From Legionella sp. (GTDB lineage: Bacteria > Pseudomonadota > Gammaproteobacteria > Legionellales > Legionellaceae), in assembly GCA_030158115.1 (NCBI GenBank), contig JAOATK010000004.1, positions 29,739-93,738 on the forward strand: a stretch of 64,000 bases of DNA, read 5' to 3'. A program made the translations under genes and the position numbers. The notes below the pieces were generated by a model. That model saw nothing but the letters and a program-made list of their open reading frames with translations, was not told where the DNA came from and ran no database searches. This document shows, piece by piece, positions 6,849 through 63,300 of this stretch; within the stretch, counting starts at the first letter, position 1; each line of letters starts with the position of its first letter.

Positions 6849-8408
6849 TTAACTCATAGCTAATGCATTATTTGGTGCGTCTAAAACCGCAACGGGCGGT
6901 TTTGGTTTATTTTCAGGATGTTTATTGTAAGCGCTAAATAGTTCATAACCTAAATAAGCAACTGTTAATGCAATGGCTGCAGGCCAACAAATAGCAAACG
7001 TCGCAATTAATAGGGTTGGCATAAACGTATTTTTTATTAGCTTAAAAATAAAATCATTACGCGCTGTTTGATATTCTTTTAGTGCTAATGCGCGCTCTGT
7101 TGGATTAAAATCCATATGGTCTAAACGGAATTTTTTTTGTTGGTAGTTTGCAAAAGAATCTCCAGTAAAATAAATAGCCGCGGCTAACGTACACACGAAA
7201 AAGCTCGCCACTACCATGCCTGGAGGCGTAAATAGTAAGGCTGCCGAAAACCCTAGCATGAGCAATCCTGCTGCGGAAGCCGCAAAGCATAAACTTGATT
7301 TTTTCGTTTTCCACTCCACTTCCAGTTCGGCCAGCTGTCTGTTTAACACCGCAATGTGCTGATCTCGTTCAGACTGCTTGAGTTCGCTATATTTCATGGG
7401 ATCTTTGTAATCAGCAAGTTCTTGTAAATATTGACTTTTCTTAAAAACATAATTCTTTTTAGCTACCATAAGTCGATACAATAACAAACTCATATCAAAC
7501 CCCAGGAATACCGCTGTAATAATACCTGTTACTGGCGAAGGAATTCGTGAAATTTGATTAAAATTAGTTAAGAAATTCACTGTGGCCCACACCAAATCGT
7601 TAGCAAAATTAAATTGCCTTTTATACAATTCGTGTTTAAAGCGCTCGAAAGTAGTTGATTTTTTTTCCTCTTCACTAGGGAAGAAGGTATGTCGAATTAA
7701 TAAACCCGCATCAATCATAAAACGTGCCAGAAATAAGCCTACGCTAAAATAATTAAGAACCCCATTTGGCGCTTGCAAGGTCGCTATTATTTTATCCGCA
7801 TTAATCTGTGTTCCCAAAGCCACGTTTATTTTATCAAGTAAGTGAATACTTTTTGCAAAAGCAAAACCTGAGGTTAACGTTAGTCGGCAAAAAACCCAAT
7901 AAAGACGGCTTAGGTTAATAAAAGCTACGTACTCTCGTAGTTTTGAAAGATGCCAAGGAGCTTTCATGATGTTTTGAAAACTCTCAATAAAACTTTGTAT
8001 CATTGAATCAACAAAATCTATTTCAGGTTCTTCTGTGGAAAACACACGTGTTTTAATTTTTTCTTTGAGTTGCTTATAATATGCCTCTTTACCTATGGGG
8101 ATATAAGTGCCCTCATTATTTTTTGGAGCAGGAGAATAGGCTTTATAAAAATTTTCTAAAAGGGAAGCACAATAGTAGCAATAGGCCCAGAAGGCATCGC
8201 TATTTTCATCTTTTCTACTCTTTAAAACAGCGAGTATCTGTACGAACTCAGCTTCGAGTTCCATTTGATTATTTAATAAAAAAGAATATTTTTTAGTACC
8301 TACAATTGCATCAGTTGCCCTAATTTTATCGTCGTGATTTCTAATTTGTGAAAAAAACTGATTTTTATCGCTGTGAAAAGCAGAATAAGGACTCATAGTA
8401 CAGCTCAC
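6849..8408 (-). CDS. Hypothetical polytopic membrane protein with a central coiled coil (519 aa), effector-like orphan
   Basis: Long ORF with several hydrophobic helices and a coiled-coil stretch (QHIAVLNRQLAELEVEWKTKK). I recognise no family. Confidence 0.6.
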   Translation of the reverse strand: MSCTMSPYSAFHSDKNQFFSQIRNHDDKIRATDAIVGTKKYSFLLNNQMELEAEFVQILAVLKSRKDENSDAFWAYCYYCASLLENFYKAYSPAPKNNEGTYIPIGKEAYYKQLKEKIKTRVFSTEEPEIDFVDSMIQSFIESFQNIMKAPWHLSKLREYVAFINLSRLYWVFCRLTLTSGFAFAKSIHLLDKINVALGTQINADKIIATLQAPNGVLNYFSVGLFLARFMIDAGLLIRHTFFPSEEEKKSTTFERFKHELYKRQFNFANDLVWATVNFLTNFNQISRIPSPVTGIITAVFLGFDMSLLLYRLMVAKKNYVFKKSQYLQELADYKDPMKYSELKQSERDQHIAVLNRQLAELEVEWKTKKSSLCFAASAAGLLMLGFSAALLFTPPGMVVASFFVCTLAAAIYFTGDSFANYQQKKFRLDHMDFNPTERALALKEYQTARNDFIFKLIKNTFMPTLLIATFAICWPAAIALTVAYLGYELFSAYNKHPENKPKPPVAVLDAPNNALAMS

Positions 8409-8529: not shown

Positions 8530-9963
8530 TTATTTACCTATACAAAAACTAGAAAAAATTCTTCCCAATAAATCGTCAGAGCTGAATTCGCCTGTAATTT
8601 CACATAAAGTGTGATGGGCTAAACGTAGATCTTCTGCTAATAATTCTCCAGCACGATGAGTTGATAATTGATGCTGGCCTGTCGATAATAAATCTTTTGC
8701 TTCATCTAAAGCCTGTAGATGACGTCTTCTAGCAAGAAATTGACCTTCATTGGGTTGGTAGCCGACCACTTGTTTAATTACTTGTTTTAAACCTTCAATT
8801 CCCTCGCCTGATTTAGCGGAGAGATAGACGGTATGATCTTGGACTTTTGCAGGGTAGTGAGTGATATCAATTTTATTAAATACTGTGATAATAGGAACTT
8901 CTTCTGGTAATGCAGCCCTGATTTCTTCAGTGAGCACATGATGCTCTTCTGGATCATTGATATCGACCAGCAATAAAACACAATCGGCTTGTTTTAATTC
9001 CTGCCAGGCACGCTTAATGCCTTCCTTTTCAACAATATCATCTGACTCTCGCAGGCCTGCTGTGTCAATGATATGTAGGGGAATGTCATCTAATAAAATA
9101 TGTTCCCGCATGACATCGCGGGTTGTTCCTGCAATTTCAGTCACAATGGCAATGTCACGACCAGCAAGGCTATTGATTAAAGTAGATTTTCCCGCATTGG
9201 GACGGCCGGCAATCACTAAAGATAGCCCTTCGCGCAAAAGAACACCTTGATTTGCTTGAGATCGAATGGCATTAAGATCAACTAAAATGGCATTTAATAA
9301 ATTAGACACTTTTCCATCGTTAAGAAAATCAATTTCTTCTTCAGGAAAATCAATCGCGGCTTCAACATATAAACGCAAATAAATCAGTTGTTCATTTAAT
9401 TGATTTATTTTTTGCGAAAATTCGCCTTGCAAGGACTTAAATGCCATGCGCGCCGCGGTTTGTGAGCTGGCTTGAATTAAATCCGCAATCGCTTCTGCTT
9501 GAGTTAGGTCAATTTTATCATTTAAAAAGGCACGCTCAGAAAACTCACCAGGTCGAGCCAAACGTGCTCCTATTTGCACACAGGCTTTAGTCAACATATC
9601 CAAAACTATGGGAGAACCATGCGCTTGAATTTCAACTATATCTTCACCAGTAAAAGAATGGGGAGCCTTAAAATAGATCATTAAGCCTTGATCAATTGTT
9701 ACTGCTTGACCATTTCCTACGTCCCGAGGCCTGTCCGCGGGATCCATGGGGCTAGCTAGATCACTGGATCCCACGGGCAAGCCTCGGGACGTAGGGATTG
9801 AGTCAGAGTAAAAAGAACAAAAGGTAGCTAATCGAGGTTTTAAAACTTTATTACCATTTATCACTAAAGCAATAGAATATGCTTTAGGACCAGAGAGTCT
9901 TAAGATGCCTACCCCACCACGTCCTGGTGGGGTAGCTATGGCTACTATCGTATCGGTAACCAT
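8530..9963 (-). CDS. mnmE: tRNA modification GTPase MnmE (TrmE), carrying a 27-aa in-frame insertion
   Basis: [22 protein letters not shown]-terminus, G-domain motifs GRPNAGKST / DTAGLR / NKID, and C-terminal FCIGK. The protein is 477 aa versus about 450 aa typical. Confidence 0.95.
9716..9796. repeat. 81-bp GC-rich palindromic element inserted in-frame in mnmE
   Basis: CCTACGTCCCGAGGC (9716-9730) pairs perfectly with GCCTCGGGACGTAGG (9781-9795). An inner arm pair CCGCGGGATCCA / TGGATCCCACGG has one mismatch. The element encodes about 27 aa ([27 protein letters not shown]) in a loop where E. coli MnmE reads only DADGS. Confidence 0.85.
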
Positions 9964-11888: not shown

Positions 11889-12199
11889 GTTTTACCCAAT
11901 CTGGTATTAATATTCGAGTTTGCTTGTTTTGCTACACCATGTCTAGCTAAAAAAATCATATCAACGGCAGGTAATTCCTTTTGCCGAAAGCTTTCTCTCA
12001 ATAGCCGCTTAATACGATTACGATCATGGGCTTTTGCTATCATTTTTTTTGATAGCGCCAACCCTAGTCGAGCATAACCTAAATTATTCTCTCGAAAAAG
12101 AACAATAAATTCGGATGTTACAATTTTTTTTGCCTGATCAAACACATGATCATAATCTTTTTTAATTAATAATCGCTGTGCTTTTTTAAAAGCAAACAC
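11855..12199 (-). CDS. rnpA: Ribonuclease P protein component
   Basis: 114-aa basic protein ([10 protein letters not shown]...[13 protein letters not shown]) in the position after rpmH. The start is GTG. Confidence 0.9.
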
Positions 12200-12333
12200 T
12201 AGGCGGACAAACGCTTACGGCCTTTAGCACGACGACGTTTAATCACTAATCTTCCTGCACGAGTTGCCATACGTTCACGAAAACCATGATCGCGTTTACG
12301 TTTTAAGTTACTGGGTTGAAAGGTGCGTTTCAT
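12199..12333 (-). CDS. rpmH: 50S ribosomal protein L34
   Basis: Own translation gives [44 protein letters not shown]. This ORF is too short to appear in the ORF track. Confidence 0.95.
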
Positions 12334-12775
12334 GATGAACCTGTAAATAAAATTATGAGGTTGGCAATGATAGAGAACTTTTTTTCTACTGTCAATTTAG
12401 ATAGTTGATTATTTTTTGGTTATTTTGCATTTTGAGTAAAAAATTGAACAGTATTCATGAAAAAACGATTATCTTGTCGCACTGTAATTATTAATATAAG
12501 TTAATCTTTTAAAAAACTTATTGTTATTATTAGTAAGAACAATACCTGTTTATAACTCTATTTTTACTTTTAAATTCAATTGGTTAAGTCGTGTTAAACG
12601 CTGTTTGTAAAGCTCATTATAGACTGTGTCTAATCTGTTGACTGTTTTACGATTAAAGTTACCCACTGATTTATCTTCATCTTATACGCACTATTTAACC
12701 CTAGTTATACATAGTTAACTTGATCCAAAGTGAGTTATATTTGTTCTTTGTTCATCAGTTATTCTTTTCTTTAGG

Positions 12776-13032
12776 TTCTAAATACTTTCGGTAACGCAGG
12801 CGGTAACGGAAACGTTCACGTGAATGAGCGCTACGCGCAACTTTTAGATTAAATTTTTTGTGTTGCTATTTATAATAAAATAGCTTGGATTTCGTTTGGA
12901 AATATAAAATAAACTTTTTTCATAGCTAATCTGGTTGTAACCAACAAGGTTACCAAATTTAATAAACCGCGCGAAAGCGCTCATTCACGTGAACGTTTCC
13001 GTTACCGCCTGCGTTACCGAAAGTATTTTTCA
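12776..13032. other. Long-hairpin module, copy A (52-bp perfect inverted arms 12781-12832 / 12976-13027 around a 143-bp core)
   Basis: AATACTTTCGGTAACGCAGGCGGTAACGGAAACGTTCACGTGAATGAGCGCT and its exact reverse complement. The core is the reverse complement of the core in copy B. Confidence 0.9.
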
Positions 13033-13354
13033 CTAGCAGGAATCATTGCTTACCCACGTTTGCTAATTATTAATATAAGTTAATCTTTTAAATAACTTAT
13101 TGTTATTATTAGTAAGGGCTATATCTGTTAGTAACCCATATTTTGCTTTTACATTCAACAAGTTAACTCTTGTTAAACGCTGTTTGTAAAGTTAGTTATT
13201 GACTGTGACTAATCTGTACATTCTTTTACGATTAAAGTTACCCACTGATTTATCTTCATCTTATACGCAGTATTTAACACTAGTTATACATAGTTAACTT
13301 GATCCAGAGTGAGTTGTATTTGTTCTTTGTTAAGTAATTCTTTTTTTCTTTAGG

Positions 13355-13612
13355 TGAAAAATACTTTCGGTAACGCAGGCGGTAACGGAAACGTTTACGT
13401 GAATGAGCGCTACGCGCGATTTATTAAATTTGGTAAACGTGTTAGTTGCAAACAGATTAGCTACGAAAAAAGTTTATTTTATATTTCCAAATGAAATCAG
13501 AGCCATTTTATTATGAATAGCAACACAAAAGCATTTAATCTAAAAATTGCGCGTAAGCGCTCATTCACGTAAACGTTTCCGTTACCGCCTGCGTTACCGA
13601 AAGTATTTAAAA
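13355..13612. other. Long-hairpin module, copy B, in inverted orientation relative to copy A (arms 13360-13411 / 13556-13607)
   Basis: The arms are identical to copy A except for one compensated change (GTTCACG to GTTTACG on the left, CGTGAAC to CGTAAAC on the right). The 144-bp core is about 88% identical to rc(core A). The 5 bp outside the arms also look flipped. Confidence 0.9.
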
Positions 13613-13823
13613 CCCGCAGGAATCATTACTTACCCACTGATTTATCTCCATCTTATACGCACTATTTAACCCTACTTATACATAGTTAACTTGATCCAAA
13701 GTGAGTTTTTTTGTCCTGCGCAAAGACGAATTATTAGCCATTTTATTAAAATGGCTAAAGTCCAGTACTTCCAACTCACGCGTTTTTATATATAATCTTG
13801 GAATGTATTTAAGGGATATCAAT

Positions 13824-15776
13824 ATGAAAAAATGGAATTTAGTTAACAAAATACTTTTTGGCGCATGGGCTTTACTGACCATGACCCAGACTTATGCCGG
13901 AATACCCCTTTGGACGTTTGAGCCGCTTACTGCAACCACAATCAGTGTTACAGCAACTGGTACGGCAAACATCAAGTACCGAGTTACCAATCAATCGAAA
14001 AAATCACATACCTTGTCGATGCGACTGATACCAGGTATTACTCAAGAGACAACAGCAGGCTATTGCTCTAGTCCCTTTGTTTTGGCTTATCAGCAATCAT
14101 GCACCTTAGGCTTATCAGTGAATGGAGGTTCCTTATCAGGAAATGTGGTTGGAGGGCCCATAGTATGCCAAGGAGGCAATCCTTTGCAATGTTATCAACC
14201 AAGCCAGGCAAATAGTTTAAATATTACTAAAATTTCAAGCTTTACAGTAGGAGGTACCGTTACGGGTCTTACAGAAACGGTGACCCTGTTAAACAATAAT
14301 ACGAACTCAACTCTGATTAGCAGGGATGGCTCGTTTACTTTTTCAACTCCCATTGCGAATGGTAGCACCTATTCAGTGACGGTAGGAACCCAACCGCCAG
14401 ACCAAACCTGTACCGTATTCAATGGCACAGGCACCGTAAATGGTGCTGATGTGACCAATGTCGTAGTGACCTGCTCTACGAATGCTTACTATGTAGGAGG
14501 TACTATTTCGGGTCTTACAGGAACAGTGGTCTTGTTAAACAATGACACGAACCCCACCGCGAGAAGCACGAACGATGGTTTTATCTTTTCAATTCCGATT
14601 GCAGATGGTAGTCCTTACTCAGTGACAGTAGCAACCCAACCTGTAGATCAAACTTGTTCAGTAGCTAATGGTACTGGCATCATGAGTGGTGCTGATGTGG
14701 ATGATGTCGTAGTAACTTGCTCTGCGGATACTTACAAGGTTGGAGGTAACATTACGGGTCTTGCTCAAGGAGAAACAGTGACTTTGTTAAACAATGGCAC
14801 GGATGCTACTTTGTTTAGCGCGAACGGTGCTTTTGCCTTCCCAACTGAGATTGCAGATGGTAGCCCTTACGCGGTTACGGTGAAAACCCAACCTATAGCT
14901 CAAACGTGTACAGTAGTGAACGGCACTGGCACCATAACAGGTGGAAATGTAACCAATGTCGCAGTGACTTGCGTTACTCAGAACACAACCCTACGGGTAA
15001 GTGCTACGGGAACTATTCCTGTTAATAATGGTACTAACACGCTCACTGTAACCAATATCGGAACAACCTTTGCTGCGCTAAAAGTTCATGCCGTATTGCC
15101 TAGTGGTTGGACTACTAATGTAACACAAAATGTCGCAGATTGTGATGAAATAGCACCGGGTGATTCGTGTGGATTAGTATTTTCTTCAACCCAACCATAT
15201 GTAGCCCAAGGAAATATTACGATTACGGGGGATAACATTACCTCGCCACCAACAACAGCACTTGCATTTACTGCTACTGCTAGTAATTATTTAATTTGGA
15301 ATGTAACACCCATATCAGTAAACGTCATTGGTACGTTTAACTCGTTAACACCAGGGGCATTGCCGTGGGGGTCTTTGGCTCCACCAGCTGGGGCTACAAG
15401 TAATACGGACGGCAAAACTAATACAACTAATATTGTTACTGCGCTAGGAGTCGGCAACTATGCAGCATATTTCTGCTATAGCACTGATCCGCTAGGTTCG
15501 TGGTATTTACCTGCGATTTGTGAAATGAGCGAATCATCATATGCTGGATGTCCTACTATTAACAATATTGATACCAACTTGGTTCAGCTTGGTTTTGGCG
15601 GACTTTCGGAACCATCAACCAACATCTTCTGGAGTTCTACCGAGATGACAGGGTTTGGCGATATCAACGCATTTGATCAGACCTACATCACGGGTGGCAA
15701 GAGCACGGTGTATTATAATCTTAAGGTCGTGCCAAGATATGTTATTTGTTCTCTGAGTTTAAATCCTTTTCCTTGA
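13824..15776 (+). CDS. Secreted Lcl-like surface protein: signal peptide, Cys-containing N-domain, three ~83-aa beta-sandwich-like repeats, C-terminal DUF1566 (Lcl C-terminal) domain
   Basis: Start taken at ATG 13824 (AAGGGA SD; MKKWNLVNKILFGAWALLTMTQTYAG signal peptide). Three repeats match VGGxxTGL..TVxLLNN..(8-9 aa)..G.F.F...IA.GS.Y.VTV.TQP..QTC.V.NGTG...G..V..V.VTC. The C-terminus WYLPAICEM...IFWSSTEM resembles DUF1566. Confidence 0.8.
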   Translation: MKKWNLVNKILFGAWALLTMTQTYAGIPLWTFEPLTATTISVTATGTANIKYRVTNQSKKSHTLSMRLIPGITQETTAGYCSSPFVLAYQQSCTLGLSVNGGSLSGNVVGGPIVCQGGNPLQCYQPSQANSLNITKISSFTVGGTVTGLTETVTLLNNNTNSTLISRDGSFTFSTPIANGSTYSVTVGTQPPDQTCTVFNGTGTVNGADVTNVVVTCSTNAYYVGGTISGLTGTVVLLNNDTNPTARSTNDGFIFSIPIADGSPYSVTVATQPVDQTCSVANGTGIMSGADVDDVVVTCSADTYKVGGNITGLAQGETVTLLNNGTDATLFSANGAFAFPTEIADGSPYAVTVKTQPIAQTCTVVNGTGTITGGNVTNVAVTCVTQNTTLRVSATGTIPVNNGTNTLTVTNIGTTFAALKVHAVLPSGWTTNVTQNVADCDEIAPGDSCGLVFSSTQPYVAQGNITITGDNITSPPTTALAFTATASNYLIWNVTPISVNVIGTFNSLTPGALPWGSLAPPAGATSNTDGKTNTTNIVTALGVGNYAAYFCYSTDPLGSWYLPAICEMSESSYAGCPTINNIDTNLVQLGFGGLSEPSTNIFWSSTEMTGFGDINAFDQTYITGGKSTVYYNLKVVPRYVICSLSLNPFP

Positions 15777-15883: not shown

Positions 15884-16624
15884 ATGAACAAGAATTCTGT
15901 GGTGCTGATGTTGTTAACAAGTTTTTTAACTGGTAATGCGTTTGCGGGCTCAATGGGGCAACCTGATTGGGCTTGGGTAGGCACGTTGAGCATGGGGCCT
16001 GCCTGGCAAAGCAATGGTGTCACACAAACCTTTTATTTGGCACCAGAAATTGAAAAAACCTATGTGGCGAATCAAACTTCAAGTACTTTATTCAATGGCG
16101 AGTTGTTTGTTGGTCTGCAAGATAGACTCTCGCAAACTTTTTACGGTCAGATTGGGTTAGCACTTGCTGTAACTAGTAGTGCTAATCTTTCGGGCGTGAT
16201 TTGGGATGATGCAGATCCTCAGTTTGATAATTATACTTACAGCTACAAAATACAACACACTCAGCTTACGGTAAAAAGTAAGCTCCTAGCAGATATGGGT
16301 TATTGGCTTGATCCGTGGATAAGTGGAAGTTTGGGTGTTGGGTTTAACAGCGCTCATTCTTTCGGTGATACACCCACAATTTTTGAAGCCCTTCCTAATC
16401 CCAATTTTGGATCTCACACTGAACTGGCATGGGCCTATTCTCTAGGTGTTGGTGTACAAAAAGTACTAAATGAGGATTGGCAGATTGGGGTGGGTTACGA
16501 ATTTGAAGCCGACTGGGGCAAGAGTAGTCTTGGCCGAGCTGAGGGACAAACACTAAACAGTGGTCTTTGGCTGAATCACCTTTACTCCAATGGTATTTTA
16601 TTTAACATTACTTATGTGGCATAA
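15884..16624 (+). CDS. Outer-membrane beta-barrel protein (246 aa)
   Basis: Signal peptide ending NAFAG, alternating amphipathic strands with aromatic girdles (GVGVQKVL...WQIGVGYEFE), and an AAGGAG SD. Confidence 0.6.
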   Translation: MNKNSVVLMLLTSFLTGNAFAGSMGQPDWAWVGTLSMGPAWQSNGVTQTFYLAPEIEKTYVANQTSSTLFNGELFVGLQDRLSQTFYGQIGLALAVTSSANLSGVIWDDADPQFDNYTYSYKIQHTQLTVKSKLLADMGYWLDPWISGSLGVGFNSAHSFGDTPTIFEALPNPNFGSHTELAWAYSLGVGVQKVLNEDWQIGVGYEFEADWGKSSLGRAEGQTLNSGLWLNHLYSNGILFNITYVA

Positions 16625-16663: not shown

Positions 16664-16796
16664 ATCAAAAGTAGCCTGGATGCAGCGAAGCGTAATCCGG
16701 GAGTTCCCGCGAAGCTGCTCAATTGCTATAATTAAGGTGCCATGCTTTGCATGGTCTTCCCGGATTTCGCTTCGCTGCATCCAGGCTACTTTTGAT
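16664..16796. repeat. REP-like palindromic element, family 2 (ATCAAAAGTAGCCTGGATGCAGCGAAGCGTAATCCGGGA ... rc)
   Basis: 39-bp arms with one mismatch around a ~55-nt centre that contains its own small hairpin (CCATGC-TT-GCATGG). Confidence 0.9.
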
Positions 16797-16898: not shown

Positions 16899-16907
16899 TG
16901 TGGATAA
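16899..16907 (-). promoter_or_regulatory. Consensus DnaA box (TGTGGATAA = rc of TTATCCACA)
   Basis: Perfect 9-mer whose 3' end lies 3 bp upstream of the -35 hexamer (16910) of the predicted dnaA promoter. Confidence 0.7.
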
Positions 16908-16909
16908 CT

Positions 16910-16938
16910 TTGCCTTTGCCTTAAAGCCTGGGTATAAT
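16910..16938 (+). promoter_or_regulatory. Candidate sigma70 promoter of dnaA (TTGCCT-17 nt-TATAAT)
   Basis: Perfect -10 at 16933-16938 and a 4/6 -35 at 16910-16915 with a 17-nt spacer. Confidence 0.45.
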
Positions 16939-17035
16939 TCCTTTTTAGTATCTTAGTGAATTTCAACTTTTTAACCGTGAAGTTCATGCTTATTTGTCTT
17001 GCTGTTTCGGTACATTCAGTGGCACTATTTATATT

Positions 17036-17044
17036 CGTGGATAA
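17036..17044 (-). promoter_or_regulatory. DnaA box with one mismatch (CGTGGATAA)
   Basis: 8/9 match to the consensus, located in the dnaA leader. Confidence 0.5.
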
Positions 17045-17180
17045 TTAGATCTAACCTAATGTAAGCAACTTTCTCGTTGTATGAGTTACCTGTGTAATGA
17101 GTTTTAAACTCAGCTTATGGTGTGGTAATTTTTTGGGTTTAATTCTCTTTTTACCATCCTTCTTTGATAGGAGTTATGCT

Positions 17181-18560
17181 GTGTCAGCAGCTGTTTGGCA
17201 AAAATGTTTGGGTTTATTGCAAGATGAATATTCTGCACAACAATTTAATACGTGGTTACGTCCTTTACAGGCTCACATAGAAGAGCAGCGCTTTGTATTG
17301 TTTGCGCCGAATCGTTTTGTTGTTGATTGGGTGAAAAAGCATTTTTTCTCACGCATTGAAGAGTTAATTAAACAATTTAGTGGGGAAGATATTAAGTCAA
17401 TTTCTATTGAAATTGGCAGTAAGGCTTCTGAGTCAAGCGCCTCTTCTTCTGCTGATGTGAGTGGGGCAATGACTACTACTCATACAACAACAGAGGTTAT
17501 GATAGGAAAATCGGCTCCTAAAAAGGCAGTGGATTACAAAAGTAGCCATTTAAATAAAAAGTTTTTATTTGAAAGCTTTGTGGAAGGTAACTCGAACCAA
17601 TTGGCTCGTGCAGCCTCTATGCAGGTGGCGGAGCGTCCTGGAGATGCTTATAACCCCTTGTTTATCTATGGTGGTGTTGGTTTAGGTAAAACCCATTTAA
17701 TGCACGCCATTGGTAATGAGATTCTTAGAAATAATCCTGATGCAAAAATATTATATTTGCATTCGGAGCGTTTTGTGGCAGATATGGTTAAAGCGCTACA
17801 AACTAATTCAATTAATGAATTTAAACGTTTTTATCGTTCTCTTAATGCCTTATTAATTGATGATATTCAATTTTTTGCTGGTAAAGACCGCTCTCAGGAA
17901 GAGTTTTTTCATACGTTTAATGCATTACTTGAAGGTCAACAACAAATTATTTTAACCAGTGATCGTTATCCTAAAGAAATTGAAGGCATGGAAGAGCGAT
18001 TGAAATCTCGTTTTGGTTGGGGGCTTACTGTTGCTGTAGAGCCTCCGGAGTTAGAGACTCGCGTAGCTATTTTAATTAGTAAAGCTGAGCAATCTAACAT
18101 CGAATTACCTTATGAAGTGGCTTTTTTTATTGCCAAACGTATTCGCTCAAATGTTAGAGAACTCGAAGGCGCTTTGCGACGTGTTATTGCGAATGCTCAT
18201 TTTACAGGTAGGCCGATTACCGTTGAATTTGTTCACGAAGCCTTGCGAGATCTTTTGGCATTGCAAGACAAATTAGTCACTATAGAAAATATTCAGAAAA
18301 CTGTTGCTGAATATTATAAGGTTAAAGTGGCGGATTTATTATCCAAGCGCCGCAGTCGCTCCATTGCAAGACCAAGGCAAATGGCCATGGCCTTGAGTAA
18401 GGAATTAACGAACCATAGTTTGCCTGAAATTGGGGATCATTTTGGTGGCCGCGATCATACTACGGTTATTCACGCATGTAGGAAGGTTAAGGAGTTGGTC
18501 CAGGATGAGAGTGATTTTGCTGAAGATCATAAAAATTTGATGCGGATTTTATCTTCTTAA
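17181..18560 (+). CDS. dnaA: Chromosomal replication initiator protein DnaA
   Basis: AAA+ motifs ([23 protein letters not shown]) and a C-terminal DNA-binding domain ([21 protein letters not shown]). Start taken at GTG 17181, 7 nt after AGGAG. The track ORF adds an implausible hydrophobic extension. Confidence 0.95.
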
Positions 18561-20763: not shown

Positions 20764-20951
20764 TAGCCTGGTTGCCTGTAACTAACGATGCTTACTTAAG
20801 GGCTTTACGCTCTTGTAGCCTGGATGCAGCGCAGCGTAATCCGGGAATTCGGTGCCACTGATCCCGGATTGCGCTGCGCTGCATCCAGGCTACAAGGGTA
20901 TAGACGATTACTAAAACTCATTAAGTAAGCGTCATCAGTGCAAGCAACCAG
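20764..20951. repeat. Outer REP-like element (family-1-like ends TAGCCTGGTTGC...GCAAGCAACCAG, imperfect arms) hosting a nested element
   Basis: The left arm TAGCCTGGTTGCCTGTAACTAACGATGCTTACTTAAG pairs imperfectly with CTTAAGTAAGCGTCATCAGTGCAAGCAACCAG-type sequence on the right. Element 20815-20893 sits in its centre. Confidence 0.7.
20815..20893. repeat. Family-2 REP-like element nested inside the 20764-20951 element
   Basis: GTAGCCTGGATGCAGCGCAGCGTAATCCGGGA ... TCCCGGATTGCGCTGCGCTGCATCCAGGCTAC: 32-bp arms with one mismatch. Confidence 0.9.
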
Positions 20952-24580: not shown

Positions 24581-25204
24581 TCAAATAATATTAAATTGAT
24601 GGGCTGATTCTTCAGGGGATTGTGGCGGTTGTTTTGGTGGCGTGCTAAATAAAGTATCTGCTGATTGAGCTACTGATACTTGACCTTCGGGAGTTTCTTT
24701 TTCGTACTGTGAAATAAAGGCTTTATTTATCTCTTTCGTCAAGGTGCTTTCTGGGAAAGCATAATGAGCATTTTGTATCAGTTTAAAATGAGAATTTTTC
24801 GGGGCACAAAGAACTAATCGTTCAGCGATTCTTTTTTCGTTACCACTTAATGTATCTAGTGCAAGTGAATTGAACTCCTTAAATGCATTCAGATCAAACT
24901 CAGCTAATAAAAAATCATAGGGGCGTCGGTTTCTCTCATCTAGAGAGGCAAGAATAATTGATTTAACTTTATGCGCCGTGGCTATGATAGGATAAAAAGT
25001 ACCCTCAGGTGCTATTGCTGCCTGAATAATAATATTAAAGTTTCTCAGTTCGCTAGGAGGGCAGTTTGTAATCATTTCATTAGCAAGTTTTTTTTGTTCC
25101 TCTTCGGAGCAACTATTAAAAACAGTCCGATGCTCGGCAAAATAATCAGCATCTAATAAATGACGCGGGTGGTCAGTTAGTATCTCTTCTTTGGTATAGG
25201 GCAT
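24581..25204 (-). CDS. Hypothetical protein (207 aa), effector-like orphan
   Basis: Start taken at ATG 25204 after AAGGAAG. The C-terminal tail is S/T/P/Q/E-rich. I recognise no family. Confidence 0.55.
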   Translation of the reverse strand: MPYTKEEILTDHPRHLLDADYFAEHRTVFNSCSEEEQKKLANEMITNCPPSELRNFNIIIQAAIAPEGTFYPIIATAHKVKSIILASLDERNRRPYDFLLAEFDLNAFKEFNSLALDTLSGNEKRIAERLVLCAPKNSHFKLIQNAHYAFPESTLTKEINKAFISQYEKETPEGQVSVAQSADTLFSTPPKQPPQSPEESAHQFNII

Positions 25205-25408
25205 GTAATCTTCCTTAAGTTTAAAAAAACCATTAATCCATTCGCCAATTTTAAATGCTACATGTAGTGGGAACACAAGAGCCAAATTTGCACAATAATA
25301 ATAACGGATTCACTAAAAATAATCTAAAGTTTTCTTTAGATAAGCCGAATAAGCTAATAGATACACGTTTTGCCTTTTAAAATTACAATAACAACAAGGG
25401 GGTAGGCA

Positions 25409-38822: not shown

Positions 38823-38893
38823 AAAGTAGCCTGGTTGCTTGCAACCGGGATCACTTGTACCAAACCCCGGTTGCAAGCAACCAGGCTACTTTG
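38823..38893. repeat. REP-like element, family 1
   Basis: AAAGTAGCCTGGTTGCTTGCAACCGGG-17 nt-CCCGGTTGCAAGCAACCAGGCTACTTT: perfect 27-bp arms. Confidence 0.92.
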
Positions 38894-38916
38894 CTCTTGC
38901 ACTTAGGTTAAACCGA

Positions 38917-39483
38917 ATGAAAAAAATAATTATTGGCCTGCTTTTTTTGTTTTCTTTAAGTGCACATACGGCTGAAACGCAGGAGCATTGTACTCACTCC
39001 TCATTATTTAAACCGGTTTGCCAACGCTTGCATCAAATATGGACTGAAGGGCACACCGATCTCTACATCTCAGGTTACGCTTGGCATAATCGTTATACTT
39101 ATAGTCGTGAGATGTTGCGCACTAAAAAATACAATGAGCTTGCCTGGGGTGGTGGCTTAGGGAAAGGTTTTTTTGATGAAAAGGGAAACTGGCATGGTCT
39201 TTATGCGTTTGCCTTTCTTGACTCTCATAAGAATTTAGAGCCGGTAGTCGGATATGCTTTTTTATTTGTCGGATCCTTAACGCCCGATATTAAGGCAGGA
39301 CTAGGTTATTCCATTTTAGTGACTTCACGTCCTGACATTATGCATAGCATTCCTTTTCCTGGAGCAGTTCCTTGGGCTGGTTTTTTTATAAAAAAGCTAT
39401 CAATAAAAGCAGCCTATATTCCTGGTCATGCAAACAATGGGAATGTTTTGTATTTAGTAGGGACCTATTCTTTTGAGACTTAG
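38917..39483 (+). CDS. pagP: Lipid A palmitoyltransferase PagP (Legionella Rcp-like)
   Basis: [14 protein letters not shown]...[44 protein letters not shown] matches the E. coli PagP core. Start taken at ATG 38917, which gives a signal peptide. Confidence 0.9.
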
Positions 39484-39528
39484 GATAATATGCTATGTTG
39501 TGAATACCAGCTTAAAAGGACGAAGCCA

Positions 39529-40044
39529 ATGAAATCATTTATTGAACAAGCACAGGTTTACGCAGACTACCACCATAATAAAAACACACGTTATACGCAC
39601 CTAGCAGGGGTGCCGTTAATCATTCTTTCCATGATGATACTGCTTGGTTTCGTACAAATAATTATTCCCGGTGTGTTTGCTACTACACTGGCCTTTTTCG
39701 CGACTATCGGTGCGTTAATTTATTATTATCGGTTAAATTGGAAGTTAGCGTTGGTTTTAACGCCCATCATGCTGGTTCTCTTATTAATTGCGCATTGGTT
39801 TAGTGAAGATGGACCCACAAAATTTGGTATTTGGTCCTTCGTAGTGATTTTTGTAGTGGGCTGGGGATTACAGCTCTATGGTCATTTTCTGGAAAGAAAA
39901 CGACCCGCTTTTATGGATAGTTTATCGCAAGCCGGTATTGCACCTCTTTTTCTCATTGCAGAACTTTTTTTCATGGCTGGATATATGAAGTCATTAAAAG
40001 ATCAAGTTTATGGTGCTTCAGATTTGGAAAAAGAGGGTTTGTAA
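39529..40044 (+). CDS. DUF962 (Mpo1/YGL010w-like) membrane protein
   Basis: Sequence FIEQAQVYADYHHNKNTRYTHLAGVPL plus 4 TM helices. Start taken at ATG 39529 after AAAAGGA. Confidence 0.7.
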   Translation: MKSFIEQAQVYADYHHNKNTRYTHLAGVPLIILSMMILLGFVQIIIPGVFATTLAFFATIGALIYYYRLNWKLALVLTPIMLVLLLIAHWFSEDGPTKFGIWSFVVIFVVGWGLQLYGHFLERKRPAFMDSLSQAGIAPLFLIAELFFMAGYMKSLKDQVYGASDLEKEGL

Positions 40045-40067
40045 TTTGGGAATGTGGTGCTATTGAT

Positions 40068-40134
40068 CCCGGTTGCAAGCAACCAGGCTACTTTGTCATT
40101 ATGAGTACCGTAGCCTGGTTGCTTGCAACCGGGG
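40068..40134. repeat. Family-1 REP arms in inside-out arrangement (CCCGGTTGCAAGCAACCAGGCTAC-18 nt-GTAGCCTGGTTGCTTGCAACCGGGG)
   Basis: The same 24-bp arms as the other family-1 copies, but here the GTAGCC ends face the spacer. Confidence 0.85.
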
Positions 40135-40152
40135 TCGTTTAACTCGCCACAC

Positions 40153-47069: not shown

Positions 47070-48320
47070 TTAATGAGGTTGCAATTGCGTTGCTGAAGAA
47101 GACTGCTGGTGGTTTGGAGGGGTTCCTCCATACATTCCAAGAGTTGCAAGTAATGGGGCATAGGGAGGGGGCGATTGTGTTGTAGGCAGTTGTTTAAGTA
47201 TAGTTTGTAACTCTTCTATTTGTGACCTATGAGTTTCAAGGAGGCTTTCATAGTGGGTGTTGTTTGCGGCAAGTAATTTTTGGGTTACCTCAAGTTGTTT
47301 TTTAGTTTGACATATACTAGTGAAAATCTCAGCCGTAGATTCTTTATTTTGGAGAAGCTGTTGCATGGATTCATTAAATCGCGCTCTTTCCCCTTCATTG
47401 TTAATGACAAGAGAGCTCATTCCTGCAGTAACCTCCCCTAATACAGTAGTTAGTTTTCCTGCCTCTTCTAAGCTTTCTTGTAGTTGTGCTTGTTTGTTGG
47501 CAAGCACAATAGATTGCTCCTCTAATTTTATTACAGCTTCTTTATAAGCTTGCATGGTTTGCTCTTGTGCTTTTTCGCTTGCTGTAAGTAAGGCGGTTAG
47601 TTTGGTTGTTTCAATTTCTAGCTCACTGGAGGTGCTTTCTAAATTATTTTTAATGAGTTGTAATTCACAAACTAAAGTTGCAGTGGCATCAAGCTCTATG
47701 GCTAATTGTTTATTTTGTTCCTTGAATGCTTCACTGCTCTTTTGCAGCGTCATATTTTCCTCAGAAAATTTATTTACTTCTGCGGCTAACTGTTCGCGTA
47801 TGGAATCAAGCGCGGTAATGGTTAGTTCTAAAAGATCTGCCAATCCAAAAACGCCTTGTTCTAAATGTTCAGTCGCATTAGTTTGGCACTTTTGATGATT
47901 ATGAAATAGGATCGTAGCTCCTGTGTAAATAATTGCTGTGACGCCGCAGATAGCTAGTAAAAACCATAGATGGAATACAATACCCAAGGTTAATGTAGGG
48001 ATAGTAATGGCAATTCCAATCAGAATTTTTTTCCACAGAGCAAACTGCCCCCAAAATTTCGAAGCTCGGGATAGGTAACTGGGATTTTGTTCCATGCTGG
48101 CAATAGTATCATGCAATGCATCTTTGATTTTTTTGAATATTTCTTTTGTAATGACTATTTTTTGTATGCTGGCTTTATCGCCAGTTTGAGCCTCGTTTAA
48201 TAAAGCTTTAATCTCAGCTTCTGTAGTCAAAGGGGTTTTAGGGGCTTCTTGAGAATGAATATTGTTTTCGGGTTGAATAGTATCTGGTTCTTGTGGTAAG
48301 TCATTTTCATTGATAGCCAT
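47070..48320 (-). CDS. Hypothetical coiled-coil protein with a central TM hairpin (effector / inclusion-membrane-like)
   Basis: Two adjacent hydrophobic helices (aa ~110-160 of the track ORF) are followed by about 230 aa of heptad-like E/Q/L-rich sequence. Start taken at ATG 48320 (SD AAGGAA). Confidence 0.6.
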   Translation of the reverse strand: MAINENDLPQEPDTIQPENNIHSQEAPKTPLTTEAEIKALLNEAQTGDKASIQKIVITKEIFKKIKDALHDTIASMEQNPSYLSRASKFWGQFALWKKILIGIAITIPTLTLGIVFHLWFLLAICGVTAIIYTGATILFHNHQKCQTNATEHLEQGVFGLADLLELTITALDSIREQLAAEVNKFSEENMTLQKSSEAFKEQNKQLAIELDATATLVCELQLIKNNLESTSSELEIETTKLTALLTASEKAQEQTMQAYKEAVIKLEEQSIVLANKQAQLQESLEEAGKLTTVLGEVTAGMSSLVINNEGERARFNESMQQLLQNKESTAEIFTSICQTKKQLEVTQKLLAANNTHYESLLETHRSQIEELQTILKQLPTTQSPPPYAPLLATLGMYGGTPPNHQQSSSATQLQPH

Positions 48321-48578
48321 GCTCATTTCCTTGTGATTAAGAATTTCCCTTAGGCTCTTATTTTTAATCAAAATTACCTGGATGACAAGAGTTAATTTAG
48401 CAATGAATTCAAGGCGTTATTTATTTTATGGGCGATAAGTTTAAAAAATAATCATCGGTCTTCTGTTTATTAGAAGAGTATTTTGAGACATGTATTTTAA
48501 AAAATGATATTCTGTGCCGCTGAGATTCTCTCATTTTTTGATTAATTCCCCCGATTTTAAGAAAGGAAGATGTGCTCT

Positions 48579-51434: not shown

Positions 51435-51505
51435 GTAGCCTGGTTGCTTGCAACCAGGACTTCCTGTAGGGCTGAAAAAATCCCGGTTGCAAGCAACCAG
51501 GCTAC
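51435..51505. repeat. REP-like element, family 1
   Basis: GTAGCCTGGTTGCTTGCAACC...CCCGGTTGCAAGCAACCAGGCTAC, located between the convergent rapA and the FGase-like gene. Confidence 0.9.
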
Positions 51506-51521
51506 GGGTATTCGCGTTGAG

Positions 51522-55153: not shown

Positions 55154-55819
55154 TTAAAATTTATAAATCAAGGAAAGCTCACCAGCTAAGGTGCTAAATG
55201 TGTTTTTATAAATCTGAACCGTGCCAGCTGTTAAACCTAGACCAGTGTTCTTTTGAGATCCATAAATATCATAAATCGCATCGACCCTCATAGAGAAGCT
55301 TTCGTTAATAACCGTAGTAAATCCTAATCCAGTTTGAAAACCACTTTTGTTATAACCTGTTTTAATAAGGCCGTACACGCCATTATCAGAAATATTAAAT
55401 TTTCCATTGGTATACCCTAAAATAAGATGGCCAGAGGTCATTGGAGTAAATGCGTATTTAGGTAAAACACGTACACCAAGATCATAGCTTTGGTTGTGAT
55501 GATACGTATAAGGTGAATGGGTAATTGCTGCGTTTAACCCAGTTGCATCAGCGAAAAATTCGAGCGCTAAGCCAAGAGTATCATTAAAGCCATATTCATA
55601 ACCCACATAGCCACCACCAATAATTCCTATAGCACCCAATTGATGCGTTTCAGGTGAGGAATAATGCGTTTCTTTATCAACAAAACCCGCTGTTCCAATC
55701 TCTCCAGCTACATAAAATCCATTACGAATAGTGCCTGCAGACTCCCCCATTGTGCCAGCAAATGCACCTGTCCAAGTCAATAAAAGAGCGCTTGTTATTG
55801 TTTTTAACATGTTATTCAT
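55154..55819 (-). CDS. Outer-membrane beta-barrel protein (OmpA-like 8-strand / Opa-type), 221 aa
   Basis: Signal peptide ...GAFAG, alternating beta-strand pattern and a C-terminal ...LSLIYKF with terminal Phe. Confidence 0.75.
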   Translation of the reverse strand: MNNMLKTITSALLLTWTGAFAGTMGESAGTIRNGFYVAGEIGTAGFVDKETHYSSPETHQLGAIGIIGGGYVGYEYGFNDTLGLALEFFADATGLNAAITHSPYTYHHNQSYDLGVRVLPKYAFTPMTSGHLILGYTNGKFNISDNGVYGLIKTGYNKSGFQTGLGFTTVINESFSMRVDAIYDIYGSQKNTGLGLTAGTVQIYKNTFSTLAGELSLIYKF

Positions 55820-56054: not shown

Positions 56055-56465
56055 ATGAACGATTCATTGCATTCTTTATTTTTGGCTCAAGCTATGGGTT
56101 TGTATTTTGTAATAGTCGCAATTATTATGTTGACCCGAGCGCGTTATTATCAAAATATTTTAACTCGAGCCCATGCTGGAAGTTCTTCCATAGTGGTGGC
56201 CGGAACGATAGGGCTAATTCTAGGTATCCTCCTGGTATTAGTACATAATATTTGGGTCATGGATATAGAAGTACTCATTACCATGGTGGCATGGCTAGTA
56301 TTGATCAAGTCCATTTTATGGCTTGGGTTCCCTGAAATGATGGCAGACTATACGCACAAGGTCTATCAAGGGCCTGGTTACTACCTTCTTGCGATTCTTG
56401 CAGGTATTTTGGGTATTATTTTGATGTCCTATGGTTTTTATCATTTTGGTTTTAATAAAATGTAG
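56055..56465 (+). CDS. Hypothetical 4-TM membrane protein (136 aa)
   Basis: AAAGGAG SD 7 nt upstream and four hydrophobic helices. Confidence 0.6.
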   Translation: MNDSLHSLFLAQAMGLYFVIVAIIMLTRARYYQNILTRAHAGSSSIVVAGTIGLILGILLVLVHNIWVMDIEVLITMVAWLVLIKSILWLGFPEMMADYTHKVYQGPGYYLLAILAGILGIILMSYGFYHFGFNKM

Positions 56466-60397: not shown

Positions 60398-63300
60398 CTA
60401 TCGTTCATATCCACTAGAGCGCTTTACAGGCATACTGTTAAGAAGCTCATTAAAATCTACAGTTGAAATAGCTTGGCTCAGCTGTTGAGAAGTCAAAACC
60501 GCAGTTTCTAGAGTATTCACTGCCTTAGCACTTGTACCATATCCTTCTGGCGCGGTTCTTACTAGTGTCAAAAACTCACCAAGGCTTGCAGGCGGGCTAA
60601 AATGCACTGGTGCCCAATTGCGATGAGTGCCGCATATGGATTTAATAAGGGTTAACAACTTGGTTTGATTAGCTACATCAATAATCCAACTATCATCCTG
60701 TTTGTTAACAAATGTTTCTAACGCGCGTAGCACCTGCACTTTTTGAGACCTAGAACCACCAGAAGTCCATCTTGGTTTATTTCCTGACTCAACATTTTGA
60801 GCTAATGCCTTTAACAAATCGGTATAATTATTTTTAAAAGGTGGAGTGGTAGTCAACAGCACTTGCTCTTGTTGAGCTTTTACCTTAACTTCATCCAAAG
60901 ACAAGGCTGAGTTAGATACTGTATTATGCTGTGGTACCGTTACCTCGGGATTTTCTTGTTCTTTTTTACCTATGTGGCCTAGATTTTCTCCAGGCTCGGC
61001 CTGCAAAGTTGTTATGTCGCTCTGTGCATTAGCTATTTCTACAACCGTTTCTTCGGGTAGCTCTGAAAGTTCTAAATAAGCATCAAGGTCTTTGCGAAAA
61101 TCCTCTCGATATTGTTGGTACGTGCTTCCACTTAAACCTTGCTCTGCTTGTAACCACTCATCAACATGTGATTTCAATTCAGCTTGCGACCCAACTGCTG
61201 CCTCATATTGCTGTAGAAAAGCACCAAGTGATGCAGCTACAGTGCTCCTTACTAAAGACAGATTCACAGCTGTATCGGTGGGAATTTCAGCAGACGTGCT
61301 TTGCACATCAATTGGAATTTCACGGTCAATATGAGCACCTTCAAGTCTGCCTTGTAATATACCAACGGCAATGTGTTGTAACTTCCCTGGGTTACAAACC
61401 ACGGCACCATCTTCATAAGCATCAGCTAAGTTTAGGATTAAGCCAACCCTAGCATTTTCTCTATCTGTAGCCAAAGCTTTTGCATCAGTAATCCCCATAA
61501 ACTCGCCATATTGGATATAGTGCCAACAACGTGCCAAAAATTCTTTGCCAGTAATATTTAGGTCATAACTGGTTATCACAGTATCTGCAGATAACGGTGC
61601 AAACCCTTCTGTTTGTGATGATGCTAACCCTAAAACAAACTGAGCAGAGGTTCTTTTAAAAGTGCTTGGAAAGTCATCTAAATAAGCTATCAATGCCGCA
61701 TAATCATTATCAATCTGACTTGTGTCGTAAGGCAAAGCGAGTAACTGTTTTAGCGCATTCCCGGTGCCGCCTTCTCTACCTTCAGCGTGCACGTTGATCG
61801 CTCTAGCATTAGCTACTGCTGCCTGATGCATATTGCCTAGTTGGTTAGTCGGTGTTCCTAATATCTGAAGCATTTGCTTGTAATATTCTTGGGGATTTTG
61901 TGGCATCAAATCACGTGCAATCTCATCTTGAACCACTGCGATGCGTGCCAAACGTTCATTGTCATCATAAGTTGGCATGATCCTATCAATCCGATACTCT
62001 TGTTTGGTTATTTCATATAGTGCATGCATCACACATCCTCGGTCTTCTGCGGGCAACGGCGGAGCAAACAAGGGTTGTGCTAAAGCATAAATGTTCTCCC
62101 ATTGACGTACAGAGGGGATTTGAGCCAGGCCGTAAATCACATGTTCATCATTAATATTATATTCATCAACAAAAGCGCACAAAAAATGAAAGTGTTGTGA
62201 TGAAATATTTTCAAGTTTTCTTAAGTTCCAAAAATCGGAGATGTTGCGTCTAACAATAAGATCAGCACATGCCGCCCATTCTTCTGGTACTCTGCTTGCT
62301 ATAGCAGAAAGTTGTTTCACATGTGTTAACTGATTTTCTTCAATCAGGGCTGTAAAACGTGGCCAGTATTCGATCGGAACTTTTCTAAAAGTTGAAACGT
62401 TAAAGCTTTTTAGTTGATATTTCTGAATGAAATCGAATAGGTAGCCACGTTGAAGAGCAGACATTTGTGCATATTCATTTATCATCTCAAATTCGTGAAT
62501 TTGATTGACATCAAGAAAACGATTAAATTCGGGCCAGTCTTCATCAGAAATTTTAATCAATGCATCAATGGTATATGTTGATAATTTTGTGTTACCAGGC
62601 TGCACATGGCGTTCAATGAAGTTAGAAACTCTAGGCCATATGTCTTCGGGCATCGTTCTAAAAGCAGAAATACTTAAATTATGCTTACAAACAAAATCCC
62701 AAATCAGTTGTCTTAATGCTTGTGCTATATCTACCAATACATTTTTAGCATCCCAATCATCAACTTTATTCGTAGCAATAAACCTTATGTAATCCAAACA
62801 GGCTGTAGCTGGCATCTTGGCCAATTCACCTAATACGTAATCACTAACCTCTACCTGCTTTAAGAAATTGTCTATTTCCGGCCAAAATTCTGGCGTATGC
62901 TGTTGAAAAATCAACCCACCTTTTAAGCCATTAATATCGTATTGCTTTGCCTTGCAAAAATGAATGAAATGTTCTCGATATTGCGCAGGCATTGCTACTA
63001 AAGCTCGCCAAATTTTAGGTTTTTGCAACAAGTCATGGTCTTCAACTAGCTGGATTAAAGGATGAAGCTCCTCAGCGCTCACGTTTGATAAAGCAAATAA
63101 TACCTCACCACTTGTTATATTGCGCTGCGTGGCAAAATCAATCACCATAGTCAGCAGGTCTAAGGGCATTTGAGACAGCGTACGGATTGTGCCGCCGTCG
63201 AATTTATTTCGACACGTAGTACTCAAAAACGTTGAAATGATAGCCCATTTGTCAACTGAAATACGGCTTAATTCATAAATGCACTGTTGTTCATTAAATG

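Follow-up and report, generated by a model that had tools for sequence, protein, structure and literature searches.

A long-armed hairpin module in two orientations within the probable origin-region DNA of a Legionella

Two long hairpins that lie in opposite orientations upstream of a gene for a secreted surface protein raise the question of whether they form a switch for that gene or belong to something else. They occur in Legionella sp., between rpmH and dnaA, in a stretch of 64,000 nt of contig JAOATK010000004.1 that is here called the window. A reading made from its letters alone (the sequence-only reading) took the hairpins for an inverton-like ON/OFF element acting on the surface-protein gene, an adhesin, and offered as the alternative a foldback element, resembling a miniature inverted-repeat transposable element (MITE), fixed in two orientations. 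Our analysis comes close to that alternative. The reading we favour, which in our judgment has about an even chance of being right, is that the modules are a lineage-restricted, non-coding, MITE-like foldback element fixed in two orientations; most likely the module is a tolerated passenger in an origin spacer and not a regulator of the adhesin.

The modules are parts of a tandem array. A repeat finder matched 12485-12784 to 13064-13363 (300 nt, 87% identity, spacing 579) and 12964-13057 to 13544-13637 (89% identity, spacing 580), which bears out the 579-bp head-to-tail duplication described earlier. The ~579-bp unit is present as two full tandem copies followed by a partial third, in the order X-Y-module-link / X-Y-module-link / Y, as delimited by the repeat finder together with alignment and, for the modules, folding. 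The first copy comprises X_A (12485..12658, + strand), an AT-rich element (24% GC) of the probable origin region that aligns with X elements beside rpmH in relatives; Y_A (12659..12773, +), a DnaA-box-like cluster with an 83-nt core (12659-12741) and a 32-nt tail, of which the window has three copies and which is conserved in relatives; module A (12775..13033, +); and link A (13034..13063, +). Link A contains the duplication junction (TAGCAGGAATCATTGC TTACCCAC GTTTGC) and ends in the first 8 nt of a Y copy, after which X_B begins. The second copy consists of X_B (13064..13237, +), Y_B with its tail (13238..13353, +), module B (13354..13613, - strand), which is the reverse complement of module A, and link B (13614..13629, +; CCGCAGGAATCATTAC). 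Its X and Y flank is 87-88% identical to that of the first copy. A third Y segment of 83 nt, Y_C (13630..13712, +), has no module behind it and had been overlooked; the three Y copies are 92-95% identical to one another. The whole array is non-coding and lies between rpmH and dnaA at the minimum of the GC skew, a position that had likewise escaped notice.

Each module is 259-260 bp long and consists of 53-bp arms around a 143-bp AT-rich core. Module A begins with GT (12775-6) and the tip TCT (12777-9), continues through the left arm (12780-12832), the core (12833-12975) and the right arm (12976-13028), and ends with the tip TTC (13029-31) and AC (13032-3); TAG flanks it on both sides (12772-4 and 13034-6). 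Module B has the same layout, with GT (13354-5), the tip GAA (13356-8), the first arm (13359-13411), the core (13412-13555), the second arm (13556-13608), the tip AAA (13609-11) and AC (13612-3), and is flanked by TAG (13351-3) and CCG (13614-6). The arms had been put at 52 bp; they are indeed inverted and perfect, with 100% complementarity in module A, and their length is 53 nt. The 52-mer itself occurs four times in the window, where none would be expected. On direct reading, each arm contains three sub-repeats of 12 nt (CGGTAACG-N4, CGGTAACG-N4 and CGTTCACG-N4). The arms have a GC content of 49%, compared with 29% in the core and 24-29% in the surroundings. As single strands the modules fold with a delta-G of -91 (A) and -89 (B) kcal/mol, corresponding to z-scores of -18 and -16.

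The arms are also the best conserved part of the array, as had been claimed. The two copies differ at 2 of 104 positions in the arms, 17 of 143 in the core and 37 of 289 in the flanks (Fisher p = 0.003 against the core and 0.0008 against the flanks). Relative to copy A, the arm of B has a single changed position, which is mirrored in the partner arm (C-G to U-A). By simple counting, two independent complementary changes at paired positions would be expected in about 0.3% of cases, while a covariation test on two sequences is powerless (the observed value was reached in 251 of 500 shuffles), so the mirrored substitution is reported as an observation only. Together with the perfection of the arms within a copy, it indicates that sequence is copied from arm to arm, a form of gene conversion that keeps the arms complementary within each copy.

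The modules appear to encode nothing. Coding potential of the core was considered and rejected, as the frames and starts of its open reading frames (ORFs) differ between the copies, and a HMMER search with a 46-aa ORF of the module against 1.84 billion representative proteins found no relatives, only two weak and unrelated matches in long proteins. Rfam 15 gave no match at gathering score; the sole match to the module was the plant microRNA (miRNA) precursor MIR530, at 41.8 bits against a required 85, and such sub-threshold matches to eukaryotic miRNA hairpins were rejected as generic matches of long hairpins. Searches for tRNA and tmRNA found none. Sites resembling the consensus of integration host factor had one mismatch each and are not informative.

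The two modules are turned relative to each other as complete units. The repeat finder matched core B to the reverse complement of core A over 118 nt at 90% identity, and the alignment of module A with the reverse complement of module B is colinear from tip to tip, with 241 of the 259 ungapped columns identical (93%); in direct orientation the alignment breaks down in the core. The bases just outside the arms are flipped too, as the sequence-only reading had suspected when it placed the exchange points outside the arms: the inverted matches that include arm plus tip extend over 59 nt at 97% and 58 nt at 98% identity. The tips are not complementary to each other and therefore serve as polarity markers of the element, which reads GT-TCT-arm...arm-TTC-AC in A and GT-GAA-arm...arm-AAA-AC in B. 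Compared without flipping, all six orthologous tip positions differ, despite flanks that are 88-95% identical, whereas five of the six agree once B is flipped. The inversion concerned the entire unit; it broke the DNA at the shared GT/AC or next to it, and the perfect arms begin 3 nt further in.

Another conceivable route to inversion is one in which RecA-dependent exchange or replication slippage between the arms occasionally flips the core and no dedicated enzyme is needed. At 53 bp, the perfect arms have the length needed for homologous exchange at low frequency, and both the complementarity within copies and the mirrored substitution point to transfer between arms. However, an exchange inside the arms cannot shift the sequence outside them, yet the tips are inverted along with the core. 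Tip and core orientations are moreover congruent in both copies, and no separate flip of the core is recorded. The joint flipping of the core and the 3-nt asymmetric tips excludes arm-to-arm homologous exchange as the source of the inversion seen here, and that such exchange flips the core from time to time seems to us very unlikely.

The flip must therefore have been made where the element ends or where the hairpin has its base, and not by homologous exchange of arms. It could have come about in three ways. The element may have been excised and re-inserted in the manner of a transposon, or inserted independently into a shared target; site-specific recombination may have crossed over at GT; or replication may have switched template once at the base of the hairpin, through the 2-nt microhomology. 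The identity between the copies is about 89% in the core and about 88% in the flanks, and this equality mildly favours a module that was duplicated with its unit and then turned in place.

Could the assembler have invented the orientation of a core, or the duplication itself? A core between perfect inverted repeats of 53 bp is not orientable by a de Bruijn assembler with k below 53, and the read-derived data used, Logan contigs of the same strain built with k = 31, collapse the 53-nt arms. The tips, however, lie outside the perfect arms, are joined to the flanks by unique k-mers and match the orientation of the core in both copies. The two units also differ at about 12% of positions, so they are not one copy that was collapsed or expanded. 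Five independent runs gave Logan contigs that are 100% identical to the window and stop at 12674, and a contig of a different set begins at 13678. Both positions coincide exactly with the limits of unique 31-mers in the window, which shows that the repeat structure is no artefact of a single assembly. An exact look-up of the ORFs that span the junctions (13354-13494 and 13547-13669) found neither on record. We consider an assembly artefact extremely unlikely.

What the modules lie in can be judged from the flanks. The gene order is mnmE-yidC-yidD-rnpA-rpmH on the minus strand, then the repeats, and further on dnaA-dnaN-recF-gyrB on the plus strand. The non-coding region is limited on the left by rpmH (12199..12333, - strand), which encodes ribosomal protein L34 (a 44-residue translation, with PF00468 found on identical contigs); a strong promoter-like site near it, TTGACA-17-TATCAT at 12395-12367, was called by the consensus scan. 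The cumulative GC skew has its minimum in the bin 12001-14000. A skew switch beside dnaA or rpmH, one mark of an origin of replication (oriC), is thus present for the flanks X and Y; it does not bear on the module itself.

X and Y are conserved beyond this species. Window positions 12302-12727 align with DNA immediately next to rpmH at 74% in L. lytica and at 73% in a Legionella metagenome-assembled genome (MAG), and X and Y align across five Legionella genomes, the relatives of X being found in L. lytica, the Legionella MAG, a JGI Legionella contig and L. pneumophila. Within X, the five-genome alignment shows the conserved blocks TTTAAAAnACTTATGTTTrTTATATA, CTGTkGATAAC, CTGTTTGTAAA and TGTGATCTA; in Y, the blocks conserved across genomes are TTAyCCAC, CATCTTATAC, GTTATnCATAG and TTGATCC. 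DnaA boxes with one mismatch reach 5 per kb in the repeat region against a window mean of 1.4. Among them are the Y boxes TTATACGCA and TTATACATA, and each Y copy contains one GATC. The boxes are degenerate in this species, whereas the homologous positions in L. lytica and on contig L018 hold perfect or near-perfect boxes. In X, L. lytica has the perfect box CTGTGGATAAC where the window has CCTGTTTATAAC, and the perfect L. lytica box TGTGGATAA has the degenerate counterpart TGTTTATAA in the window; in Y, the degenerate TTACCCACT of the window stands opposite TTATCCACG in L. lytica, L018 and L. pneumophila.

The L. pneumophila homologue of X-Y is a single copy within the 760-bp spacer between rpmH and dnaA, which we take to be the predicted oriC of that species (a prediction of the Ori-Finder/DoriC type). 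Legionella is among the listed applications of Ori-Finder (PMC4009844). The flanks X and Y of the module are homologous to the rpmH-proximal part of this predicted origin and share its position at the skew switch. In contrast to that region, X-Y here forms a tandem pair followed by a third Y, with degenerate DnaA boxes, a foldback element in each unit and two genes before the dnaA promoter. The other conserved part of the rpmH-dnaA origin region is retained near dnaA, where a motif scan found DnaA boxes on the - strand (16899..17044), namely TTATCCACA at 16899, TTATACCCA at 16929 and TTATCCACG at 17036, in a block conserved with the dnaA upstream region of L. pneumophila. Different lineages have different genes inserted between the X-Y region and the dnaA promoter. 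In the L. lytica clade these encode a short-chain dehydrogenase/reductase and a beta-lactamase; the window and its sister species have the adhesin and an outer-membrane protein (OMP) there. From position, composition, GC skew and motif conservation, the duplicated X-Y flanks are most likely oriC-region DNA and not regulatory DNA of the adhesin.

In the L. lytica clade the element has two paralogues, X-Y and X2-Y2, which have diverged and lie 515-521 bp apart (6764-7530 on contig L018, 7705-8400 on L020), separated by a non-conserved spacer of ~270 bp in which there is no long inverted repeat. In the window, X_A and X_B both belong to the rpmH-proximal X type, neither to the X2 type found in that clade, and are 87-88% identical, which makes the tandem duplication lineage-specific. 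On JGI contig L019 (7240-7410) X2 alone remains, and rpmH is no longer adjacent.

dnaA itself (17097..18560, +; identified by Pfam and homologues) encodes a protein 92-93% identical to DnaA of L. lytica, L. rowbothamii, L. saoudiensis and L. drancourtii. The ORF as listed has 487 aa, compared with 453-465 aa in homologues, and the true start is probably about 22-34 codons downstream, with about 27 as the best estimate.

Against this background the switch proposal can be weighed. In such a switch a recombinase encoded outside the window and acting in trans would flip the modules at GT/AC and turn a core promoter toward or away from the adhesin and OMP genes, giving phase variation. As in an inverton, inverted repeats bound a short segment in both copies, and at less than 300 bp it has the usual inverton size (PMC11602134). 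The breaks at the shared GT mark the outer limit of an imperfect inverted repeat of 58 bp and are compatible with a 2-bp crossover. The proposed promoter motif is also real as a motif, since TTGYAA-17-TTTAAT is conserved in both modules, at 12935-12963 (+) and 13423-13451 (-). Its -10 element TTTAAT, however, lacks the A at position 2, and neither module had a promoter called by the consensus scan, which found 2 sites in the region compared with 6.1 in shuffles. There is also no dyad-symmetric site of the recombinase type at the module boundaries, and the cores are 11% diverged, so that recent flipping is not required.

The gene that would be switched (13824..15776, +) encodes a secreted repeat protein of 650 aa with a signal peptide and three ~80-aa repeats. 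It had been described as an Lcl/DUF1566 surface protein. The secretion holds, and its full-length homologues, at 49-50% identity, carry the source name 'DUF1566 domain-containing protein'; the protein itself gave no Pfam match at E <= 0.001 and has no collagen-like repeats. An identical protein is encoded on a Logan contig. Homologues in L. saoudiensis and in an ENA Legionella contig were set aside because they lie at unrelated loci without such repeats and give no comparative information. Downstream follows a putative outer-membrane beta-barrel protein of 246 aa (15884..16624, +; weak OMP_b-brl match, E = 0.015), which is kept beside the adhesin in the sister species.

A surface protein is the kind of product that the switch proposal calls for. 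This gene appears to have a regulated promoter of its own. Its upstream region (13719..13823, +) is identical to sister contig L024 at 99 of 105 nt (94%), compared with about 80% over a 3-kb alignment that spans the gene. It contains a perfect 12+12 palindrome, TTAGCCATTTTA-T-TAAAATGGCTAA, at 13734-13758, with one arm position different in the sister species, and TTCCAA-16-TATAAT with the -10 element at 13791-13796, found by direct reading and not called by the consensus scan. The palindrome is a candidate operator for a dimeric regulator. Module A, in turn, is ~790-800 bp from the ATG of the adhesin, with origin repeats and a second 53-bp hairpin between, and module B is 210 bp from it with its core motif pointing away as assembled.

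A Pfam scan of 36 window ORFs of 120 aa or more turned up no recombinase, integrase or transposase domain; several of these ORFs had no Pfam match at all. The result agrees with the earlier statement that the window has no recombinase. The negative is not decisive, since trans-acting invertases are known, such as Mpi, a global invertase acting on distant sites (cited in PMC11602134). The flanks, finally, are origin-type DNA kept in species that lack the adhesin. With the promoter scan, the upstream block of the adhesin and these flanks all speaking otherwise, an ON/OFF switch for the adhesin is unsupported, and we regard an active inverton at this locus as improbable. For annotators, the lesson is that inverted repeats plus a surface gene are insufficient for calling a phase switch, as comparative context here reassigns the flanks to the origin.

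If not a switch, is the module a mobile element? It is small (259-260 bp) and non-coding, and has 53-bp terminal inverted repeats (TIRs). At orthologous sites it is present here and absent from L. lytica, the Legionella MAG and L. pneumophila, all of which have X-Y without a module; the spacers of relatives show no similarity to it and no long inverted repeat at that position. Small size, non-coding sequence, conserved long TIRs, a variable AT-rich core and presence or absence between species together make up the profile of a MITE-type foldback. The searches for copies found none elsewhere. In 185,579 species genomes (GTDB), JGI metagenomes and IMG/VR, an exact 20-mer of the arm matched only isolated sites in glycine-rich coding DNA, none of them extending past about 21 nt and all attributable to chance. 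Blastn with the module gave no match in plasmids and phages, and sensitive blastn with module and core found no further copy in the window and all fetched Legionella loci. The module is, on these sequence comparisons, lineage-specific.

Among described elements, the module appears to work most like a MITE, and its closest described relative within the order may be QMITE1 of Coxiella burnetii, also of the Legionellales, a long hairpin of 300-400 bp with internal promoters, 21-28-nt TIRs and about 50 copies (PMC5896051). With QMITE1 and the Correia elements of Neisseria it shares small size, lack of coding sequence, an AT-rich core and TIRs that fold into a very stable long hairpin, as well as internal promoter-like motifs, an intergenic position in either orientation and TIRs that are better conserved than the core. 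In contrast to these, its arms are 53 bp long, perfect and made of 12-nt sub-repeats (21-28 nt in QMITE1, 26 bp in Correia elements), there are two adjacent copies instead of tens of dispersed ones, the putative target-site duplication is TAG/TAG around A but TAG/CCG around B, and there is no sequence similarity to any retrieved element.

The likeness to invertons, such as fimS of E. coli, segments of the hin/gin type and the invertible promoters of Bacteroides found by PhaseFinder (PMC11602134, PMC11892184), is one of geometry only. It consists of a segment of less than 300 bp within inverted repeats, which lies upstream of a surface-protein gene and occurs both ways round between homologous flanks, and of break points at a shared dinucleotide. 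Unlike invertons, the modules show their two orientations at two paralogous sites that are 11% diverged and not at one site in a population, their inverted repeats have several times the usual length, there is neither a convincing promoter nor a recombinase among the 36 ORFs, the gene has its own promoter region and the flanks are origin DNA. Repetitive extragenic palindromic (REP) sequences and bacterial interspersed mosaic elements, Rickettsia palindromic elements (RPEs), Coxiella QMITE2 and the GTAG-type REPs of this same genome resemble the module as hairpin repeats, including in intergenic DNA of Legionellales, but have no sequence similarity to it, and REPs are short, with arms of 35-45 nt that enclose small loops and no 143-bp core.

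On the favoured reading of a MITE-like foldback, the element would sit in the fast-evolving spacer of the rpmH-proximal Legionella origin region, made of X and the DnaA-box cluster Y. The X-Y-module-link block would then have been duplicated in tandem in this lineage, leaving one Y behind it, and one module would afterwards have turned round as a whole unit with breaks at GT/AC.

Several observations weigh against this reading. Dispersed copies, expected of a MITE, were not seen, there being only two adjacent copies within the 64-kb window and the collections searched; membership of the module among MITEs is accordingly not established, the multi-copy property being absent from the available data. 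The check for further copies and target-site duplications that had been proposed gave no further copy at the level of the exact arm 20-mer and was equivocal for the duplications, with TAG/TAG around A and TAG/CCG around B. We know of no transposase with matching ends. The equal identity of core (about 89%) and flank (about 88%) fits an inversion in place at least as well as an independent insertion, and the strong conservation of the arms could reflect a function for the host, as a protein-binding site or as part of the structure of the origin region. The assignment of X-Y to the origin, moreover, is a prediction from position, composition, GC skew and motif conservation, and its boxes are degenerate in this species (TTACCCACT, TGTTTATAA).

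The main uncertainty of the favoured reading is whether the hairpin is a mobile foldback element or one bound to its locus and inverted once. In the latter case the module would never have been mobile and would be a structural or protein-binding part of the origin, for example a cruciform or a binding platform between DnaA-box clusters, which originated within this lineage's spacer and became duplicated along with the unit, after which one copy was inverted once by a template switch at the hairpin base. Module plus link, at ~290 bp, occupies the same position as the ~270-bp spacer of the L. lytica clade and has a similar length. The greater constraint on the arms than on their surroundings, the restriction of known copies to this locus among the genomes, metagenomes and loci searched and the equal divergence of core and flanks would all be accommodated, and on direct reading the 12-nt sub-repeats and the palindromes CACGTG and AGCGCT resemble binding sites. 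Relatives, however, replicate without the module, its two orientations imply independence of orientation, contrary to a polar function, and the contrast in composition between the arms and their surroundings suggests a foreign origin. To our knowledge, no comparable structure exists in any characterised oriC. Taken together, we consider a hairpin that was always bound to this locus rather unlikely.

A further alternative would combine origin and switch. The modules could be a new kind of invertible element of origin regions, flipped whole at GT/AC by a recombinase encoded elsewhere, with its orientation modulating transcription into the DnaA-box clusters, and hence initiation, or expression of the surface-protein operon. 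We think this quite improbable; if a switch were active within an origin, phase variation would be tied to the control of replication, which would be new.

If instead the modules are a MITE-like foldback, they add one more family of such repeats to the Legionellales. A foldback element inside a tandemly duplicated origin with three DnaA-box clusters would show what structural disturbance the spacer of a bacterial origin tolerates, and the asymmetric tips would be a clean natural record of a long-armed foldback that was inverted whole by a reaction at its ends, as opposed to recombination of its arms.

Other hairpin repeats are present in the window, at 16664-16796, 20812-20896, 38823-38896 and 40055-40135, and one lies in frame within mnmE (8530-9963, minus strand). 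The latter is a 90-nt palindrome at 9711-9800 with 45-nt arms, 80% complementary and without a spacer; it adds an in-frame insertion of 32 aa, which the MnmE proteins of L. lytica, the Legionella MAG and L. pneumophila lack, and it is an RPE-like palindromic element within an essential gene. In the sister species, a foldback of ~135 bp of the GTAG/REP type (AGTAATAGGTCAC...GTGACCTATTAC) lies upstream of dnaA (230-367 on contig L025; Logan ERR14822391), where the window, at 16983-16986, has none. It is related to the window repeats at 38826-38889, 40053-40135 and 51435-51506. Together with the palindrome in mnmE, this insertion shows that hairpin elements are mobile in this lineage.

Two of the long hairpins, at 16664-16796 between the OMP gene and dnaA and at 20812-20896 after recF, are REP-like, with arms (GTAGCCTGGATGCAGCGAAGCGTAATCCGGGA) of 39 and 35 nt that are 97% complementary; the first has a spurious Rfam match to mir-617, and a Logan contig ends there. 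Inverted REP-type pairs at 38823-38896 and 40055-40135 bracket a 1.2-kb segment (38839-40044) with pagP-like and Mpo1-like genes, which could be a REP-flanked gene cassette. Finally, six ORFs of 136-1008 aa have no Pfam match at the cut-offs applied (6849-8408, 24581-25285, 47070-48371, 55154-55819, 56055-56465 and 60398-63424) and may encode Legionella-specific proteins or effectors.

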